Assembly: GCA_041480845.1 (NCBI GenBank)
Contig: JBGPAU010000003.1
Span: 1 to 54,758, forward strand
Source of the DNA: Patescibacteria group bacterium
GTDB taxonomy: Bacteria > Patescibacteriota > Microgenomatia > UBA8517
DNA length: 54,758 bases
Direction: 5' to 3'
Each line of letters begins with the position of its first letter. The stretch's first letter is position 1. Below the pieces are notes generated by a model, which saw nothing but the letters and a program-made list of their open reading frames with translations, made no database searches and was not told the DNA's origin. Shown in pieces: positions 18,285 to 35,085 of the stretch. The translations under genes were made by a program, and so were the position numbers.

Positions 18285-18758
18285 ATGGAAAAACAATTTA
18301 AGGCAACACAAAAATATCTTTTGATGAGTCCGAGAAAAATCAGGCTTGTTGTGGGGGTTATTAAAAAGATGAAACCGGCAGAAGCTGTCGAAAAATTGCC
18401 TTTTGTTCAAAAAAGAGCAGGCATGGAGCTTGCCAAAGTTATAAAAAGCGCCATAACTTCGGCAAAAAATGCTGGAGTGAGCGAAACGGACTTGGTTTTT
18501 AAAGAAATACAAATTGGTGAAGGGCCTCGTCTTAAAAGAGGAAGAGCAGCCAGCCGTGGAATGTGGCACCCTTTCAAAAAAAGAATGGCTCACATAAGAG
18601 TCATATTGATGACAAATGCTAAATCAGAAACTCTAAATTCTAAAAAGTTAGAAAAATCAAAAATTGAAAGTTCAAAACCGGAAACAAATATTAAGCAAAG
18701 CTTGGCCAGTCAGAGCCCTGGTAAGAAAGAGGAAAAAGGAAAGGAGGCTAAGTCCTAA
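18285..18758 (+). CDS. rplV: 50S ribosomal protein L22 with repeat-derived C-terminal extension
   Basis: SPRKIRLV, GEGPRLKR, AHIRVIL, then about 47 extra residues. Confidence 0.97.
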   Translation: MEKQFKATQKYLLMSPRKIRLVVGVIKKMKPAEAVEKLPFVQKRAGMELAKVIKSAITSAKNAGVSETDLVFKEIQIGEGPRLKRGRAASRGMWHPFKKRMAHIRVILMTNAKSETLNSKKLEKSKIESSKPETNIKQSLASQSPGKKEEKGKEAKS

Positions 18759-25484: not shown

Positions 25485-26113
25485 ATATACTTATAATCGG
25501 TCCGCAGGGTTCGGGCAAAGGAACACAGGCGAGAATTCTAGTTGAGAAGTTTAACCTTTATTATTTTGAGTCGGGTGCATATTTGAGGAAAATGGCCGAG
25601 ACTCACCCGGAGCTTAAAAAATTGTTGGATGAAGGGAAACTTGTTCCCGACAAAGAGTTTACTTCCTATTTGGCTGCGTATTTGGACGACCAAAACCTAT
25701 ATGACAACATTCTTTTCGACGGTTTTCCAAGAACTGTTTCCCAATACGAATTTTTTAAGAAATGGCTAACGGATAAAAAAGTAAGTTTGGATTTGACGAT
25801 ATTTTTACAAATAAGCCAAGAGGAAACCGTAAGACGCCTGACGGCCAGAAGGCAAGATCCGGCTTCCGGCAAGATTTACAACCTTATTACCGAGCCTCCT
25901 CCTCCCGATGTCGATACCGGTAAACTTATTCAGAGAGACGACGATAAACCCGAAGCGATCGAAAAAAGACTTGAACTATTTAGGCAGCTGACAGAACCCT
26001 TGATTGCCCGGCTCAAGGAAGAATCGGAGGTTATCGAGGTTGACGGGGAACGTCCTGTCAAAGTAATTGCAGATGATCTTATTGGGGCGATTGAGGAAAG
26101 GATGAATAAATGA
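25481..26113 (+). CDS. adk: Adenylate kinase
   Basis: GPQGSGKGTQ, DGFPRT, QRDDD. Confidence 0.96.
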   Translation: MNILIIGPQGSGKGTQARILVEKFNLYYFESGAYLRKMAETHPELKKLLDEGKLVPDKEFTSYLAAYLDDQNLYDNILFDGFPRTVSQYEFFKKWLTDKKVSLDLTIFLQISQEETVRRLTARRQDPASGKIYNLITEPPPPDVDTGKLIQRDDDKPEAIEKRLELFRQLTEPLIARLKEESEVIEVDGERPVKVIADDLIGAIEERMNK

Positions 26114-26859
26114 TTCCTGTCAAGAGCGACTCCGAGATTCAAATCATGGCTGAGGGGGGTAAAAAACTTGCTCGAGTAAAGAATGCCCTCGGCGACGCGG
26201 TCAAAGCGGGTGTCAGAGCATCAGGTATCGAGGAGTTGGCTGCGAAGTTGATAAAGGAGGAAGGAGCAGAAGCTTCTTTTAAAAAAGTTCCCGGCTACCA
26301 CTGGGCGACCTGCGTCAATGTGAATGAAGGACTGGTTCATGGGATTCCCATTTCAAGTGTAATTTTCAAGAAGGGCGATATTGTCAGCATTGACGTCGGG
26401 ATTTTGTTCAAAGGGTTCCATACAGACACCTCAATTTCGGTTGGAATCGATTTAAGCCCCGAAAACCGGAAATTCCTGAATACCGGCCGCGAGGCCTTGG
26501 CTAAGGCCCTAAGGGCGGTTAAGGAGGGCAACTATATTTACGATGTTTCCAAAGCCATAGAAGATACGGTTGAAGCGGCGGGCTATTCGGCCATAAAAGC
26601 TCTTGTCGGGCACGGAGTTGGCAGGGAGCTTCATGAGGATCCCCAAATCCCCTGTTTTGTGCTTGGAGCCAGAGAGCAAAGTGCCGAGATCGAAAAAGGT
26701 ATGGTTTTGGCAGTTGAGGTCATGTATGCCATGGGGAGCGATAAAGTCGAACTTTTGGAAGACGGGTGGACAATAGCCATGAGGGATGGTAAAATATCAG
26801 GACTTTTTGAGGATACTATCGCGGTAACTAAGTTAGGACCCAAGGTGTTAACGAGATGA
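26110..26859 (+). CDS. map: Methionine aminopeptidase type I
   Basis: [13 protein letters not shown]...[15 protein letters not shown]. Confidence 0.96.
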
Positions 26860-27071
26860 AAACCAAGAACGTAGTTATAGTTGAGGGAAACGTGTCCGCC
26901 GCCCTTCCCAACACAATGTTCAGGGTGACTCTGAGCGATGGGAGGCTGATTTTGGCCACATTAACCGGAAAAATGCGTAGAAATTACGTCAGGATTTTTC
27001 CGGGAGATAAGGTCAAGGTTGAAATGACGCCTTACGACGAGGCAAGGGGAAGAATAGTATATAAATTCTAA
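26856..27071 (+). CDS. infA: Translation initiation factor IF-1
   Basis: [21 protein letters not shown]...GRI. Confidence 0.98.
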
Positions 27072-27184
27072 TGAAAGTACAAAGTTCAATCAGTTTAAGA
27101 TGCAAGGACTGTAAGATTGTTAAACGCAAGGGCGTTTTATACGTCATTTGTAAAAACCCCAGGCACAAACAGAGACAAGGATGA
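27071..27184 (+). CDS. rpmJ: 50S ribosomal protein L36 (not in the ORF track)
   Basis: Manual translation [37 protein letters not shown]. Confidence 0.97.
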
Positions 27185-27185
27185 T

Positions 27186-27599
27186 ATGGCACGTATAGCC
27201 GGAATAGACTTACAAGATAGCTGGAAAGTAGATTTCGCCTTAACTAAAATAAAAGGTTTGGGCTGGCCGTTGTCCAAAAAAATCATGAAGGATGCCGGAA
27301 TTGATACCAAAAAGAGAATTTCCGACCTAACAAGTGATGAAGTAAGTAAAATCTCGGCTGAACTTGAAAAATATCAAATTGAAGGGGACTTGATGAGAGA
27401 TGTAAGAGCAAATATTCAAAGACTGGTAGTAATCGGATCGTATAGAGGCTCCAGACATACAAAAGGGCTACCAGTCAGAGGGCAAAGGACGAGGACTAAT
27501 GCCCGTACGAAACGCGGAAAACGTAAGACCGTGGGAGCGTTTAAGAAAGAAATGCTTTCCAGGCTGACCACCGGAAAGGAAGAGGAGGCAAAGAAGTAA
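27186..27599 (+). CDS. rpsM: 30S ribosomal protein S13
   Basis: MARIAGID, GLPVRGQRTRTNARTKRG. Confidence 0.98.
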   Translation: MARIAGIDLQDSWKVDFALTKIKGLGWPLSKKIMKDAGIDTKKRISDLTSDEVSKISAELEKYQIEGDLMRDVRANIQRLVVIGSYRGSRHTKGLPVRGQRTRTNARTKRGKRKTVGAFKKEMLSRLTTGKEEEAKK

Positions 27600-27600
27600 T

Positions 27601-27981
27601 ATGGCAACCAAGGCTAAGAATATAAAAAAGGAAGTTGGTTTGGGCAAAATTTACATTTCCGCATCTTTTAATAACACGCTTGTAACCCTTACAAATGCCG
27701 TGGGTGAGACTTTAGCTTGGGGTTCATCCGGTGCGTCGGGTTTTAAAGGCACAAGACGCGCTACTCCTTACGCGGCAACAACTGCAGTTGAAACGGTTCT
27801 AAATAAGGCTAAAAATGATTTTGGTGTAACGGAGGTTGAAATTTATGTCAAAGGCCCCGGAGCCGGACGCGATGCAGCACTTCGTGCGGTCAGGGCCGCC
27901 GGAGTTAAAATTGCTCTTATTGCCGACATTACACCTGTTCCACATAACGGACCGAGGCCGAAAAAGAAAAGGAGAGTCTAA
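27601..27981 (+). CDS. rpsK: 30S ribosomal protein S11
   Basis: ASFNNT, TPYAA, DITPVPHNG. Confidence 0.98.
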   Translation: MATKAKNIKKEVGLGKIYISASFNNTLVTLTNAVGETLAWGSSGASGFKGTRRATPYAATTAVETVLNKAKNDFGVTEVEIYVKGPGAGRDAALRAVRAAGVKIALIADITPVPHNGPRPKKKRRV

Positions 27982-27983
27982 GG

Positions 27984-28583
27984 ATGGCAAAATACGTAGG
28001 ACCAAAAGACAGGCTTAGCAGGCGCGAAAACTTCGACATTTTTGGTGCCGGAGCGAAGCTGACAAGGCTTAATGTGCCGCCCGGAGTTCATGGACCAAAG
28101 GGGCTAAGGGGTTCTTCCCAATACGGCAGGCAGCTTAGGGAGAAGCAAAAAGTCAAAAGGCTTTACGGTATTTTAGAAAAGCAGTTTAGGAGATATGTTG
28201 AAGAGGCTTTTAGAGCCAAGGGGAATACGGGAGAAGCCATACTAATTAGCCTTGAAAAGCGTCTGGATAATGTAATATTCAGGCTTGGATTTGCTCCGAG
28301 TAGGCCCGCCGCCAGACAGTTGGTTTCCCACGGACACGCCATGGTAAACGGCAAAAAAGTTAATATTCCTTCCTATAAATTGGTTGTCGGGGACACGGTT
28401 TCGATTGATTCTAAGGCCGGCGCCATACCCGAAATCAAACAAGCGATTGAAAATAAGGATATAAAGCTCCCTGGCTGGTTGGAGAAAAAGGCCCTGGTAG
28501 GCAAGGTTTCTGCCAACCCCAAGCGTGAAGATATAACTGAGCCTATAAGCGAAATGGACATCGTAGAGTTTTACTCACGATAG
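27984..28583 (+). CDS. rpsD: 30S ribosomal protein S4
   Basis: YGRQLREKQK, LEKRLDNVIFR, ARQLVSHGH, IVEFYSR. Confidence 0.98.
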   Translation: MAKYVGPKDRLSRRENFDIFGAGAKLTRLNVPPGVHGPKGLRGSSQYGRQLREKQKVKRLYGILEKQFRRYVEEAFRAKGNTGEAILISLEKRLDNVIFRLGFAPSRPAARQLVSHGHAMVNGKKVNIPSYKLVVGDTVSIDSKAGAIPEIKQAIENKDIKLPGWLEKKALVGKVSANPKREDITEPISEMDIVEFYSR

Positions 28584-28589
28584 GGGTTC

Positions 28590-28615
28590 GCTTGGCCAGA
28601 CAAAGCCCTGGTAAG
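28590..28615 (+). repeat. Family B repeat, copy 2
   Basis: gcttggccagacaaagccctggtaag, similar to copies at 18692 and 34203. Confidence 0.8.
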
Positions 28616-28649
28616 TGAGCAGGATATAGTTGAGTTTTACTCCAGATAG
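28611..28649 (+). other. Recoded second copy of the rpsD 3' end (VSEQDIVEFYSR*)
   Basis: 29/39 nt identical to 28545-28583, same reading frame, 10 of 12 residues identical. Confidence 0.9.
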
Positions 28650-28679
28650 GCAGCAGCCTAGATGGAGGTTTGGAGCCAT

Positions 28680-28760
28680 AAGGCGGAGAACACTGACACC
28701 TTGTTGAGAAAGTTCCTCGTGGGTACTTTCTCAAGCAATGCTTGATTCCCAATTAGCCTT
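28680..28760. ncRNA. Candidate structured RNA (long imperfect hairpin)
   Basis: Perfect 10-bp core ttgagaaagt/actttctcaa, extendable to aaggc/gcctt. Confidence 0.35.
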
Positions 28761-28770
28761 GGGTTATAAT
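28742..28770 (+). promoter_or_regulatory. Internal rpoA promoter
   Basis: TTGATT-17-TATAAT, followed by leader hairpin agtcttaa-ag-ttaagact (28778-28795). Confidence 0.65.
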
Positions 28771-28811
28771 ACACCCTAGTCTTAAAGTTAAGACTGTATT
28801 TTGAAAGAAAA

Positions 28812-29729
28812 ATGAACGAACCAATGTTTGAGATCAAAGAAGAAAAGAAAGAGGCCGGTTACGGCAGATTTGCCATAACACCCCTTGAACAGGGGTACGG
28901 TCTTACGATCGGTAATGCCATAAGGCGTGTCCTTTTATCTTCTCTATACGGAGTAGCAGTCACCTCAGTTAAAATCGCAGGAGTAAAGCACCAGTTTTCT
29001 TCTCTTACCGGCATGAAGGAAGACATAGTTGAATTTGTTCTTAACCTCAAGAAAGTCAGATTTTCCGGAAAAGCCGAAAAACCCGTTAAAGCTACTTTAG
29101 AAGTAACAAAATCCGGCGAATTTACGGCTGCCGAAATTAAAGTCGGAGGCGGAATCAAAATTGCCAATCCCGATTTAATTTTGGGCACTCTGAATAAGGG
29201 TTCAAAGCTCTCCGCGGATATTATGATTGAAAGCGGAGTCGGTTATTCTCCCGCGGAAGACAGGCCCGGAGAAACAATCGGTCTTATTCCGGTTGATGCT
29301 TCTTTCTCTCCGGTTAAAAGAGTCAGCTACAAAATTGAGGAAACCCGTGTCGGTCGACTTACAAATTATGACAAATTGCTCTTGGAAATTTGGACGGACG
29401 GAACGGTTGATGCCAAAGAAGCATTAACGGAATCCGCAAAGATTCTAATGTCTTATTTTGGCCAGGTGGTTAACCCCAAGAAAGTTGTAAAACCGGTAGA
29501 AGCACCCAAGGATGAACTAGGACTTATAGGAAAGCTTTCGGTGGAAGAAATAGGCCTTCCCACAAGAGTTGCCAATGCCCTAATTAAAGCCGGTTTTGAA
29601 TCGGTTGAACAGCTTGCGTACGCAAAGAAGGAAGATTTGGTTAAGGTAAGAAATTTGGGAGAAAAGTCCCTCAAGATTATAGCTGCTGCGCTCGGAACAA
29701 AGGGAGTCGAGTTCCTCGCCATCAAGTAA
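28812..29729 (+). CDS. rpoA: DNA-directed RNA polymerase subunit alpha
   Basis: PLEQGYGLTIGNAIRRVLLS, DASFSPV, RNLGEKS. Confidence 0.98.
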   Translation: MNEPMFEIKEEKKEAGYGRFAITPLEQGYGLTIGNAIRRVLLSSLYGVAVTSVKIAGVKHQFSSLTGMKEDIVEFVLNLKKVRFSGKAEKPVKATLEVTKSGEFTAAEIKVGGGIKIANPDLILGTLNKGSKLSADIMIESGVGYSPAEDRPGETIGLIPVDASFSPVKRVSYKIEETRVGRLTNYDKLLLEIWTDGTVDAKEALTESAKILMSYFGQVVNPKKVVKPVEAPKDELGLIGKLSVEEIGLPTRVANALIKAGFESVEQLAYAKKEDLVKVRNLGEKSLKIIAAALGTKGVEFLAIK

Positions 29730-29733
29730 AACT

Positions 29734-30174
29734 ATGAATAAGAGAGTGTTTGGAAGAAAACTTTCCAGATCACGTCCGGCCAGGGAAGCTTTATTTGCTT
29801 CTTTAGCCCAAAGCCTGATTATTAATGGAAAAATTGTAACCACCCGCGCAAAAGCCAAGGCGGTTGCCGGTAGTGTGGAAAAGATGGTTACACTGGCCAA
29901 GAAAGGAAATATCGCGGCAAGGAGAAAAGTAATGAGTAAATTGGACAATAAAAGAGAAGCCGCTGATGTTTTATTCCAGAAAGTTGTCAAAGCTTTTCCG
30001 GCCAAAAACTCAGGTTTTACCAGAATAATTTCTCTTCCTAGACGTGTCGGGGACAATGCCCAAATGGTCAGAATGGAATGGACGGAAAAAATAGAATATG
30101 AGACCAAAAAGAAGGAAGAAAAGAAAGGTGATAAGGTCAAAGGCAAAAAAGCTGAAGAAAAACCCAAAAAATGA
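29734..30174 (+). CDS. rplQ: 50S ribosomal protein L17 with Lys-rich tail
   Basis: GRKLSR, IVTTRAKAK, SGFTRI, RVGDNA. Confidence 0.97.
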   Translation: MNKRVFGRKLSRSRPAREALFASLAQSLIINGKIVTTRAKAKAVAGSVEKMVTLAKKGNIAARRKVMSKLDNKREAADVLFQKVVKAFPAKNSGFTRIISLPRRVGDNAQMVRMEWTEKIEYETKKKEEKKGDKVKGKKAEEKPKK

Positions 30175-30614
30175 AGACATTTTCACCCACACCAAAAGAT
30201 GTAAAAAGAGAATGGCATTTGATTGACGCCAAAGACGAAATATTGGGCAGGCTTTCTACCAAAATCGCGGGACTACTTATGGGTAAAGGCAAAGCAACTT
30301 TTAGCCATCACATGGATATGGGAGACTATGTGGTTGTAATTAATGCTGAAAAAATCATGGTTACCGGAAGAAAAGCTTCCCAAAAAGTTTACATAACCCA
30401 TTCGGGATACCCGGGGGGATTTAAATCAAAAAAATACAGTATGATGATGGAACAGCATCCGGAGCGCATTATTGAACACGCGGTGGCCGGAATGCTTCCT
30501 ATCAACCGATTAAGAGATCCCAGAATGTTAAGATTAAAAGTAGTAGCTGGGGATAAAAATCCTTATACTGATAAATTCGAAGCAAGAAATCCGAAATCCG
30601 AAAGTAAAGTTTAG
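30171..30614 (+). CDS. rplM: 50S ribosomal protein L13
   Basis: WHLIDA, LGRLS, GDYVVVINAEKI, HSGYPGG. Confidence 0.98.
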   Translation: MKTFSPTPKDVKREWHLIDAKDEILGRLSTKIAGLLMGKGKATFSHHMDMGDYVVVINAEKIMVTGRKASQKVYITHSGYPGGFKSKKYSMMMEQHPERIIEHAVAGMLPINRLRDPRMLRLKVVAGDKNPYTDKFEARNPKSESKV

Positions 30615-33041: not shown

Positions 33042-34205
33042 ATGACAAATAGAGACGAATATATCGAAAAGTTGAGTAAGGTTTCCAAAATGACTCCTGA
33101 TGAGGCTAAAAAGTCTCTTTTGGATGAGGTCCAGGCCGATCTGACAGGTGAAATAGCCAAGAAGATCAGAGCCGCGGAGGAAAAAATCAAAGAGGAAGCA
33201 AACGAAAAAGCTCAAGAAATTCTTCTTGATGCCATGAAACACGGAGCCACGGGCTACGTTGCCGAATATACGGTTTCTTCGGTAACCGTGCCCAATGAGG
33301 ACGTTAAAGGCAGAATAATCGGTGCCGGAGGCCGAAACATCAGAACCTTCGAAAAAGAGGCAGGAGTTGAAATCGAAATCGACGAAACCAATGAAATCAG
33401 ACTTTCTTCTTTTGATGCAATCAGGCGCGAAATTGCCAAAAGGGCTTTGGAAATTCTAATCAGAGACGCCAGGATCCAACCATCAAGAATTGAGGAGGTT
33501 ATAAGGCAGGTTAAAGCCGGAATGGAGGATGTTTTACTTGATGAAGGCAAAAAAATAACACATGAATGCGGTGTTTATAATCTTCCTGTGGAACTGATGA
33601 GAATGATCGGGCGCTACAGATTTAGAACTTCATACGGACAAAATCTTGGAATCCATACAATTGAGGAAACAAAAATGGGAGTGGCGGTTGCCGGGGAAAT
33701 CGGCGCCAATGTTGATGTGGTCCGGCTTGGATGTTTACTTCATGACATCGGCAAAATTGTAACAGATGAAGAAGGAAATCATGTGGAGTTGGGAGTAAAT
33801 CTTCTTAAAAAGTACGGGATGCCCAAGGAAGTTATTGCTTGTGTTGCGGAACATCACGAGGACAGATCTTTTTCTTCAAACGAATCTGTAGTTGTTTGGA
33901 TCGCAGATGCCATATCCGGCAGCCGTCCCGGAGCCAGATATGAACCCCATGAAGGTTATGTCAAAAGGATGACCAAGATTGAGGAAATTGCCAAGGGATT
34001 TCCCGGAGTTGATATGGTTTATGCATTTCAGGCGTGGCGCGATGTCCGTGTAATAGTTAACCCCGATGAAGTTGATGATGATAAACTGACAGTACTTGCC
34101 CATGATATTGCCAAAAAACTTGAGAAAGAAGCAGAATATGCAGGTCAAATCAAAGTTTCCGTTATCCGTGAAGTCAGGGCTACGGAAACTACTTCCGCCA
34201 AATAA
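33042..34205 (+). CDS. rny: Ribonuclease Y lacking the N-terminal membrane anchor
   Basis: KH domain KGRIIGAGGRNIR, RTSYGQN, HD motif LLHDIGK, SRPGAR. Confidence 0.95.
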   Translation: MTNRDEYIEKLSKVSKMTPDEAKKSLLDEVQADLTGEIAKKIRAAEEKIKEEANEKAQEILLDAMKHGATGYVAEYTVSSVTVPNEDVKGRIIGAGGRNIRTFEKEAGVEIEIDETNEIRLSSFDAIRREIAKRALEILIRDARIQPSRIEEVIRQVKAGMEDVLLDEGKKITHECGVYNLPVELMRMIGRYRFRTSYGQNLGIHTIEETKMGVAVAGEIGANVDVVRLGCLLHDIGKIVTDEEGNHVELGVNLLKKYGMPKEVIACVAEHHEDRSFSSNESVVVWIADAISGSRPGARYEPHEGYVKRMTKIEEIAKGFPGVDMVYAFQAWRDVRVIVNPDEVDDDKLTVLAHDIAKKLEKEAEYAGQIKVSVIREVRATETTSAK

Positions 34206-35085
34206 GCAAAGCTTGGCCAGTCAAGGCCCTGGTAGTTTTCTCTTTTTAAGCTTCATTGCCCTCTTCATTTTTGTGGCAATTTTTGCTTATTTAAATAGGT
34301 CGGTTTTTCAATCGTCAACGAAAAAATCATTTCCGGATAAATTCGGGCAACTGCTTAATATTCCGACTCCGACCCCAACCCCAACACCTAAGCCATTAAC
34401 CTTTGCTGAGATGAATACTCTTTACGGTCCTTGTGTCCGCCTCCCGGTACTTATGTATCATCACATCCAGACCCAAGACGCCGCGAAAGCGAATAGGGAA
34501 ACAGGTCTAACTACTTACACTGATTTTTTCCAAAAACAAATGCAGTACCTTAAGGACAAAGGCTATAACGTTGCCGGCATGAATGATCTCGTCAATTTCT
34601 TTGATAACGGAACGCCGATTACACCCAAAAGCGTTCTTATAACTTTTGATGATGCCTATGAGGATTTTAATACGGACGCCTTTCCCATTCTCCAAAACTT
34701 GGGTTATAAAGCAACAGTATTTGTGCCGACAGGGCTTGTGGATAATCCGGGATACCTTACATGGAACCAAATTATTTCGATGAACGGATCGATTTTATTT
34801 GCCAACCATACCTGGTCCCATAAAAATGTGGGAGTTTCGACGAGCATCATGCAATATGAAGTTTCTACAGCAGATACCCAACTGTCTGACCGAAATTTAA
34901 ATTCACCGAAGATCTTTTCTTATCCCTATGGGCTTGACACCGGGCAGGCGGAGAAGTATCTGATTTCTTTGGATTATAAAGCTGCCTTTACCACAAATCC
35001 AGGGGGCATTCTTTGCGAAAAACAAAGATTTGCCCTCCCCAGAATTAGAATCGGCAGCACTTCTTTGTCCTCTTACGGGTTTTGA
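34138..35085 (+). CDS. Membrane-anchored polysaccharide deacetylase (CE4/NodB); start uncertain
   Basis: TM helix, PTPTPTPTP linker, PVLMYHHI, ITFDDAYED, NHTWSH, YPYG. Confidence 0.85.
   Translation: MQVKSKFPLSVKSGLRKLLPPNKQSLASQGPGSFLFLSFIALFIFVAIFAYLNRSVFQSSTKKSFPDKFGQLLNIPTPTPTPTPKPLTFAEMNTLYGPCVRLPVLMYHHIQTQDAAKANRETGLTTYTDFFQKQMQYLKDKGYNVAGMNDLVNFFDNGTPITPKSVLITFDDAYEDFNTDAFPILQNLGYKATVFVPTGLVDNPGYLTWNQIISMNGSILFANHTWSHKNVGVSTSIMQYEVSTADTQLSDRNLNSPKIFSYPYGLDTGQAEKYLISLDYKAAFTTNPGGILCEKQRFALPRIRIGSTSLSSYGF
34203..34234 (+). repeat. Family B repeat, copy 3
   Basis: taagcaaagcttggccagtcaaggccctggta starting at the rny stop codon. Confidence 0.85.

Follow-up and report, generated by a model that had tools for sequence, protein, structure and literature searches.

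In the 54,758-nt stretch of DNA analyzed here (the window; positions 1 to 54,758 of contig JBGPAU010000003.1 in the Patescibacteria group bacterium assembly GCA_041480845.1), rpsD, the gene for ribosomal protein uS4 (S4), is followed in the same frame by a second, diverged copy of its own 3' end, including the stop codon. The two ends lie 27 nt apart, and most of the DNA between them is a 5'-truncated copy of a hairpin mini-element of ~30 nt. The explanation that we favor, with moderate confidence, is recombination at the element between two rpsD alleles that had already diverged, which would have left the 3' end of one of them stranded and untranslated. The parts of the locus are as follows, in window coordinates.

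27984..28583, + strand: rpsD (uS4), 199 aa, from the list of open reading frames (ORFs); TAG at 28581-28583
28545..28583, + strand: copy 1, the working rpsD end, ISEMDIVEFYSR-TAG (sequence, repeat search, and codon comparison)
28584..28589, + strand: 6-nt filler, GGGTTC, between the stop codon and the repeat core, unlike the usual 5' part of the repeat
28590..28615, + strand: 5'-truncated copy of the ~30-nt hairpin mini-element ("family B"); its 3' TAAG overlaps the start of copy 2
28611..28649, + strand: copy 2, probably an orphaned 3' end from a second allele of rpsD, VSEQDIVEFYSR-TAG, (V)SEQDIVEFYSR-TAG, in frame with rpsD and past its stop

Two diverged ends of rpsD

The two-copy structure is real and not an assembly artifact. 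Logan contigs from four runs were aligned to positions 27984-29200, and all four agree with the window without a single difference: the X1 contig (9705 nt, from a run that may be the source sample) contains all of these positions, the X4 contig (521 nt, 28261-28781) and the X5 contig (273 nt, 28408-28680) contain both copies whole, and the X3 contig (467 nt, 28560-29026) contains the last 24 nt of copy 1, the spacer, and copy 2. An earlier note on this DNA, made from its sequence alone, had described the duplicated S4 end with exactly the sequence and coordinates seen here and had raised the possibility of a chimeric assembly, against which these contigs speak. None of the contigs of the four runs skips the 66 nt between corresponding positions of the copies; excision of these 66 nt at the RNA or DNA level was rejected because no contig contains such a joint, rare variants being invisible in contigs. 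No RNA runs were listed among the 24 runs with the locus.

In a repeat search, the copies appear as a single 39-nt direct repeat (28546-28584 and 28612-28650) of 77% identity with a spacing of 66 nt; the longest identical run within this direct repeat, ~13 nt, lies in the conserved coding stretch. Copies 1 and 2 differ at 10 of 39 nt, and a comparison codon by codon bore out the seven synonymous and two nonsynonymous differences (I/V and M/Q) counted in the earlier note. The first codon of copy 2, GTA (V), is the end of the repeat and not part of S4, and the S4-derived part begins at ~28612. The 36 nt past this junction codon contain 9 nucleotide differences that alter a single residue. When nine substitutions were placed on these 36 nt at random, none of 200,000 trials left at most one residue changed under a uniform model (P < 5e-6), and 4e-5 of the trials did so with a 2:1 transition bias. 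Because the observed differences spare the protein beyond what random placement allows, the two copies diverged as coding sequence, and the view that both evolved under selection as S4 rather than by decay agrees with this simulation as well as with the rpsD ends of relatives.

For the comparison with relatives, S4 loci of 29 other genomes were read along with that of the genome under study (G000, 718 kb), giving 30 loci; G001 and G002 belong to the same genus as G000. Copy 2 matches the working rpsD ends of G001, G025, and G009 at 34 of 39 nt and copy 1 at 29 of 39 nt. The natural end nearest to copy 1 (32 of 39 nt) is that of G002, which also reads SEM and belongs to an rpsD gene free of the element. 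The question of which copy matches the sister genomes thus has a divided answer, copy 2 being nearest to G001 and copy 1 to G002. At the variable site, 26 of the 30 loci encode Q, 2 encode M, and 2 encode S, so that copy 2 has the family consensus, and G002 is the sole genome besides G000 with M.

Downstream of copy 2, the following features were found.

28650..28739, + strand: spacer 3' of copy 2, including a hairpin (28704-28716/28722-28734), homologous to the rpsD-rpoA spacer of G098, a genome of another genus
28740..28744, + strand: GCTTG, a direct repeat of 28590-28594; the pair brackets a 150-nt block (28595-28744) and may mark a junction
28742..28770, + strand: rpoA promoter-like site, TTGATT-17-TATAAT (promoter scan, 10 of 12 matches)
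28812..29729, + strand: rpoA, from the ORF list (naming discussed below)

Because the DNA 3' of copy 2 is homologous to the natural spacer of G098, copy 2 lies in what appears to be a native rpsD 3' context that runs into the rpoA promoter. The blastn match to G098 spans 28614-28736 (71% over 123 nt of the query; E = 1.7e-10) and is contiguous with the real rpsD end of that genome; the rpsD spacer of G111 is also partly homologous (85%) to the DNA 3' of copy 2. In a MAFFT alignment, the real rpsD ends of relatives align to copy 2 and not to copy 1. The spacer 28650-28739 is absent from both G001 and G002, which have no duplicate and in which the rpsD stop codon is 50 and 77 nt from rpoA. Neither a duplicated rpsD end nor a conserved extension was seen at any of the 29 relatives' loci inspected, and a blastn search of 125 genomes of the family gave no second adjacent rpsD-end match in the other 124 genomes among the matches listed.

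A second, shorter type of rpsD-end repetition was seen in a different genus: directly 3' of rpsD, G144 (locus L037) carries three tandem 22-nt units, each consisting of the last two rpsD codons, the stop codon, and a word that resembles the 5' half of the element.

A dispersed hairpin mini-element and the orphaned gene parts beside it

The 27-nt spacer between the copies had been described as mostly a family B repeat, and this description holds: its core (28590-28615) recurs with at most 3 mismatches at four further sites in G000 (window positions 18692-18725 and 34203-34236, C7:27608-27633, and C2:28051-28076), for a total of five copies. A degenerate pattern with at most 2 mismatches gave 50 matches; the genomes that carry them, 18 of the 139 scanned from the order, represent 12 of 91 genera and belong without exception to a single Woesebacteria family, and the reversed pattern, used as a control, gave none in the 139 genomes. 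The exact pattern was found in 18 stretches of a species-representative collection, the coordinates of which match family-f1 genomes of the 139-genome scan; their titles describe metagenome-assembled genomes of Woesebacteria, Microgenomates, or Patescibacteria, five stretches being labeled "uncultured Gammaproteobacteria" and one "bacterium." A search of viral contigs for the element gave no hits, leaving carriage by phages unsupported. A literature search found no published description of this repeat.

As judged from 42 aligned copies, the conserved unit comprises an 8-nt word beginning with TAAG, the core, and a second TAAG, with a 30-nt period in tandem arrays. A fold of the region predicts a hairpin for the element, which starts 7 nt past the rpsD stop codon. 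Across the copies, 88.7% of the cells are paired, and 2 of the 8 pairs show compensatory changes (4 cells, a level reached by 3 of 500 shuffles), the changed copies being tandem neighbors. The element is open in two frames, which read KQSLASQSPGK or AWP.KALV, and its third frame starts and ends with TAA.

In other genes, the insertion site is flanked by (T/A)AAG, and in-frame copies can be recognized by comparison of orthologs. Those in a glycosyltransferase of G020 and G031 and in a MurG-like protein of G002 correspond to gaps of 10 or 20 residues relative to the G000 orthologs, and in RecR of G098 the gaps around the element total 11 residues relative to the G000 ortholog. The C-terminal tail of ribosomal protein L22 contains the element (read as KQSLASQSPGK) in G000 and G002 and an empty site in G001, and the AWP.KALV reading occurs also in RecR of G098 and GrpE of G097. 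By its copy number and its in-frame filled and empty sites, the element would therefore qualify as a dispersed mini-element tolerated in frame, in the manner of the Rickettsia palindromic elements (RPEs) considered below. It is a ~30-nt noncoding repeat with a predicted hairpin and not an integrative element.

Several observations concern individual copies. One G000 copy lies directly 3' of the stop codon of a gene ending at 34205 and is also open in frame within a TTG-started ORF (34096-35085), upstream of a hydrophobic stretch; the true start of that ORF may lie 3' of the element. In the glycosyltransferase genes of G020 (L155) and G031 (L157), the element is flanked by an extra inverted repeat of 8 to 12 bp that, by eye, shows paired changes between the genera, so that the hairpin reaches into the coding sequence. 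Part of the element, AAAGCCCTGGTA, matches AAGGCCCTGGTA of rpsD (28488-28499), which was put down to chance, seven such short families being present in 600 nt. An inverted repeat at 28512-28528/28575-28591 (82% complementary) was likewise set aside as near chance, with ~0.2 expected by our own estimate and no stability in the centroid fold.

At rpsD, the two sides of the element differ in character. On the 3' side, its TAAG falls where rpsD itself has TAAG (the Ile-Ser codons in this genus), abutting copy 2, and this junction looks like an ordinary in-frame insertion into an rpsD allele in the AWP.KALV frame. On the 5' side, GGGTTC stands where the 8-nt word would be expected, with agreement at 1 of 8 positions, and this is the sole such copy among the 42. 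As the conserved 5' word is missing, the left joint would therefore be secondary and illegitimate.

Orphaned gene parts also adjoin the element elsewhere in the family. At the 5' end of the enolase gene of G002 (L152, C1 ~410935), the normal 5' end of the element abuts an orphan copy of the gene start (~20 nt, differing by one mismatch or indel); 19 nt of filler separate the element from the intact gene, so that the layout is a mirror image of that at rpsD. In G072 (L055 and L052) and G097 (L056 and, on C6, L154), 5' fragments of tRNA genes ending in GGTA are joined to the element at or in the D-loop and lie just upstream of intact tRNA-Pro, tRNA-Thr, and tRNA-Lys genes; the L154 fragment differs in sequence from the intact tRNA-Pro gene. 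The duplicated parts at enolase and tRNA-Thr are nearly or fully identical, whereas those at rpsD are diverged.

Proposed recombination between alleles and the competing explanations

In the course of events that we propose, a mini-element would have inserted in frame into an rpsD allele of the SEQ type, at the Ile-Ser TAAG that precedes the ten C-terminal residues. DNA from a related lineage would then have recombined with this allele, so that an uninterrupted SEM-type end, stop codon included, came to lie upstream of the element. Of the two crossovers, one would have been homologous and the other illegitimate, in or at the 5' edge of the element; because the illegitimate joint lay there, the 5' word of the element would be missing and 6 nt of filler left. 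The product would be what is seen at the locus: a normal S4 gene, followed by the filler, what is left of the element, and the former gene end with its spacer. A plausible route is homology-facilitated illegitimate recombination (HFIR) after DNA uptake, in which the highly conserved rpoA promoter and leader, or rpsD, could anchor the homologous crossover. The alleles would stand at roughly species-level divergence; over this region, G000, G001, and G002 are pairwise ~75-90% alike (about 80%). With this history, the in-frame, stop-free layout is a coincidence, and copy 2 would be intact because the event was recent, not because it is translated.

The patchy distribution of the residue in which the two ends differ also bears on exchange of rpsD ends. 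Residue 191 of S4 is M in 16 and Q in 94 of 120 proteins from close relatives (P0002-P0121), in a patchy pattern. Among these proteins, P0003 shares 97.7% identity with the S4 of G000 over its first 175 residues, and others of both the SEM and the SEQ type are 87-93% identical to it. On a tree of the first 180 residues, the distribution of M and Q needs 5 changes, with five separate M groups, and a single origin of M was recovered in 0% of the bootstrap trees. Since a change of CAG to ATG takes two base changes, exchange of rpsD 3' ends seems a likelier cause of this pattern, which gives a weak hint that such ends are exchanged among close lineages.

A number of results weigh against the proposed recombination or fail to provide what it might have left behind. 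The approximately unbiased (AU) test of a single origin of M is borderline (p = 0.046), and the M group was named after the tree was seen. Sliding-window identity over 26100-30600 against G001 and G002 revealed no breakpoint and delimited no imported tract. Among metagenome contigs, of which 80 loci were kept, the best is 72% identical to the S4 of G000, and no pre-event allele was found; SEM-type rpsD ends gave 3 hits in the genome contig collection, G002 being the sole relative among species representatives. The junction of the element with rpsD, searched for as a degenerate pattern in the genome contig collection, gave no hits, and an rpsD gene interrupted in frame by the element was not seen in the other 124 family genomes among the matches listed. 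The read-through C terminus, used as a query in a search of 5.8 billion proteins with 354 scored, retrieved no element-interrupted S4 among the best 120 of the 354; these 120 cover at most 52% of that part of the query, and of five longer proteins inspected, four have extra N-terminal residues and one (P0116) has two extra C-terminal residues, KW, none having an insert or a 22-residue tail. Furthermore, the repeated association of the element with orphaned ends suggests an element-driven process and not an accident.

The direction of the exchange, that is, which allele was resident and which imported, is ambiguous, with evidence both ways, and this too tells against the proposal. Import of copy 2 would fit the absence of 28650-28739 from the congeners, the finding that removal of the GCTTG-bracketed 150-nt block gives a stop-to-promoter layout like that of G001, and the loop variant of the element, which is that of the copies in G098 and unlike that of the other four G000 copies. 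A resident copy 2 would fit the canonical junction with the element, the native downstream context, and the nearest S4 relatives, which are mostly of the Q type on the tree of the first 180 residues.

Among the competing explanations, a programmed replacement of the gene end holds up best, although we consider it rather unlikely. Here the mini-element, or a nuclease-bearing parent of it, would target the 3' end of rpsD and carry a diverged surrogate end, so that S4 stays whole upon insertion and its resident end is pushed aside, the locus being a minimal or decayed cassette. An explanation of this kind had been put forward in the earlier note, and part of it stands, in that a repeat element occupies the precise point of junction and the gene ends on its two sides are those of diverged alleles. 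The recurrence of orphaned gene ends beside the element at enolase and tRNA genes points the same way, as does the presence in G000 of three small ORFs of the GIY-YIG type, two of them adjoining tRNA genes. What did not stand is the cassette itself. The 27 nt between the copies contain no + strand ORF and no cargo, integrase, or nuclease gene, and a 69-aa reverse-strand ORF had no match in a Pfam search. The 5' motif of the element is absent from the loci of all three GIY-YIG ORFs, the element was found at rpsD in no other genome (by pattern scan and, among the matches listed, by blastn across the family), and, with no duplicate at the 29 loci inspected, relatives offered no pair of copies between which cargo could lie. 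Nor does the supposedly recoded replacement end look recoded: copy 1 is of a natural type, also found in G002, whose rpsD is free of the element, and the differences between copy 1 and copy 2 are those of ordinary divergence, while the near or full identity of the duplicated parts at enolase and tRNA-Thr argues that recoding for "immunity" is not general.

A bolder version of the same idea, which we regard as improbable, is that the element is the visible part of an undescribed homing-like system in Woesebacteria that replaces the ends of essential genes (tRNAs, enolase, and rpsD) with copies from other genomes. If so, rpsD would be the first snapshot of that system in which donor and recipient ends can be distinguished, and the homing-like process would move DNA between species, the SEM/SEQ polymorphism of S4 spreading along with it. 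The three GIY-YIG ORFs of G000 (C1:53751-53963, C30:3764-3979, and C17:1140-1358) are free standing, and one of them contains TAA.

Tandem duplication in place, by slippage or as a long target-site duplication by the element, with subsequent divergence, is disfavored already by the sequence comparisons and has a low probability. Near-identical direct repeats do flank the element at enolase (~20 nt) and tRNA-Thr (22 nt). An orphan produced in this way, however, should decay at all codon positions, whereas the 9 differences alter one residue (P < 1e-4) and the stop codon is retained. In addition, copy 2 is nearer to the working ends of other species than to copy 1, and the sequences 3' of the two stop codons are unrelated.

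It is very improbable that the second end serves as an extension of S4. The earlier note had proposed that UAG readthrough forms part of a fidelity loop, some ribosomes making S4 with a 22-residue tail that affects decoding accuracy. The frame is indeed kept, with no stop for 21 codons, and if TAG is read as X, the result is a stop-free, in-frame 22-residue tail, X-GFAWPDKALVSEQDIVEFYSR, that ends at the second TAG; copy 2 is undecayed; and the genome encodes a tRNA with the anticodon UUA (C1:26186-26262). Such a tRNA might decode UAA and, through wobble pairing, UAG as well. Comparative support is nevertheless lacking: among the loci inspected, the layout is found in G000 alone, the loci of the 29 relatives have no duplicate, and the conserved stop-free spacer of 3n length that readthrough would predict was absent from every relative inspected. 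TAG is an ordinary stop codon in G000, ending 61 of 381 long ORFs (TAA, 220; TGA, 100), and 25% of the long ORFs that end in TAG have at least 22 stop-free codons behind them. Of 44 tRNAs detected by ARAGORN, one has the anticodon UUA and none has CUA. Rfam searches of the whole window at gathering thresholds gave no matches, and the tail is fully accounted for by residues encoded by the element and the orphaned end. Basal readthrough would give traces of tailed S4, but there is no reason to think that they matter.

An assembly chimera of two strains, conceivable for a metagenome-derived genome with co-occurring related species (contigs of other species at <90% identity are present in the same runs), is already refuted by the X4 and X5 contigs, which come from other samples and studies and cover both copies whole without differences, and by the agreement of X3 and X1, unless four assemblies share one systematic error, and is practically excluded.

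Relation to known systems and neighboring features

RPEs are roughly 100-150 nt long. The mini-element resembles them in its behavior, as a short, putatively palindromic repeat dispersed in coding and noncoding DNA, including RNA genes, and tolerated in frame; it differs in being ~30 nt long (a fifth of the size), in belonging to a different phylum with no relation in sequence, in being flanked by a (T/A)AAG repeat, and in being able to supply a TAA stop in its third frame. Orphaned gene ends recur beside this element, and we know of no such report for RPEs. For scale, 728 RPEs are reported for Rickettsia felis, 85 of them within ORFs and 3 in RNA genes (PMC1166351).

The layout at rpsD shares with HFIR the short repeats, TAAG and GCTTG, at the candidate joints. 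In HFIR, one end of an incoming linear DNA joins by homology and the other illegitimately, which adds foreign DNA beside a conserved anchor (PMC3240628). HFIR has been demonstrated in naturally competent laboratory species and in E. coli conjugation and is not known to have been shown in Patescibacteria; at this locus it would be deduced from its product. Orphaned 3' ends at polymorphic toxin and effector loci provide a further parallel, in that a new end displaces the old one and the relic stays downstream (PMC5361080). Such toxin and effector loci are under diversifying selection and have immunity genes, unlike this housekeeping gene with near-identical protein ends.

The locus also invites comparison with the partial gene duplicates at attachment (att) sites and with programmed readthrough. 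When integrative elements insert at the 3' ends of tRNA or protein genes, partial gene duplicates are left at attL and attR, and the ends may differ, one of them coming from the incoming DNA. At rpsD, working and displaced gene ends likewise occur in direct orientation, but there are 27 nt between the copies and neither an integrase nor cargo; neither a recombinase with cargo between the repeats nor an identical core, the hallmarks of an att site, was found there. Programmed readthrough extensions share with this locus the open, in-frame extension past the stop codon; unlike them, the rpsD tail is not conserved in relatives, has no recognized stimulatory signal, and consists of a repeat plus an orphaned end.

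What is new in comparison is a protein-gene case in which the two ends appear to come from different lineages. As the two rpsD ends differ, the locus argues that recombination with a foreign allele, and not target-site duplication, is the origin of at least some of the duplicated gene ends found next to repeats of this kind, and the scar gives a hint as to how small hairpin repeats in this family gain flanking duplicated gene ends. It would represent a dated-looking trace of DNA passing between diverged lineages in a housekeeping gene of uncultured, small-genome Patescibacteria, and it would tie such exchange to a tiny in-frame hairpin repeat. With the accuracy feedback loop of S4 unsupported, it would be wrong to treat the locus as a recoding signal; in annotation, such relics can pass for readthrough extensions or for split genes.

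The assignment of the gene itself is straightforward. The product of ORF 27984-28583 matches the Pfam domains Ribosomal_S4 (PF00163; 5.2e-22) and S4 (PF01479; 1.1e-18), and the protein is 87-90% identical to those of G001 and G002. The neighboring ORFs, read by eye from their translations as S13, S11, rpoA, and L17, suggest the cluster rpsM-rpsK-rpsD-rpoA-rplQ, and by both domains and gene cluster the ORF is identified as the gene for uS4. The ORF at 28812-29729 we take to be rpoA from the similarity of its N terminus and its place in the operon; its promoter region is 94-100% conserved in G001 and G002.

Two hairpins were noted between copy 2 and rpoA. The one at 28704-28734 has the form TTGnnAAAGT...ACTTTnnCAA, which occurs once here and twice in G098, with variable stem positions that co-vary by eye; no run of T follows it. 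The other, in the rpoA leader (28778-28795), has an 8-bp stem and lies just 3' of the -10 box; in G098 and G020, paired changes preserve the stem, again by eye, and this hairpin may have a conserved role in regulating or processing the rpoA mRNA.

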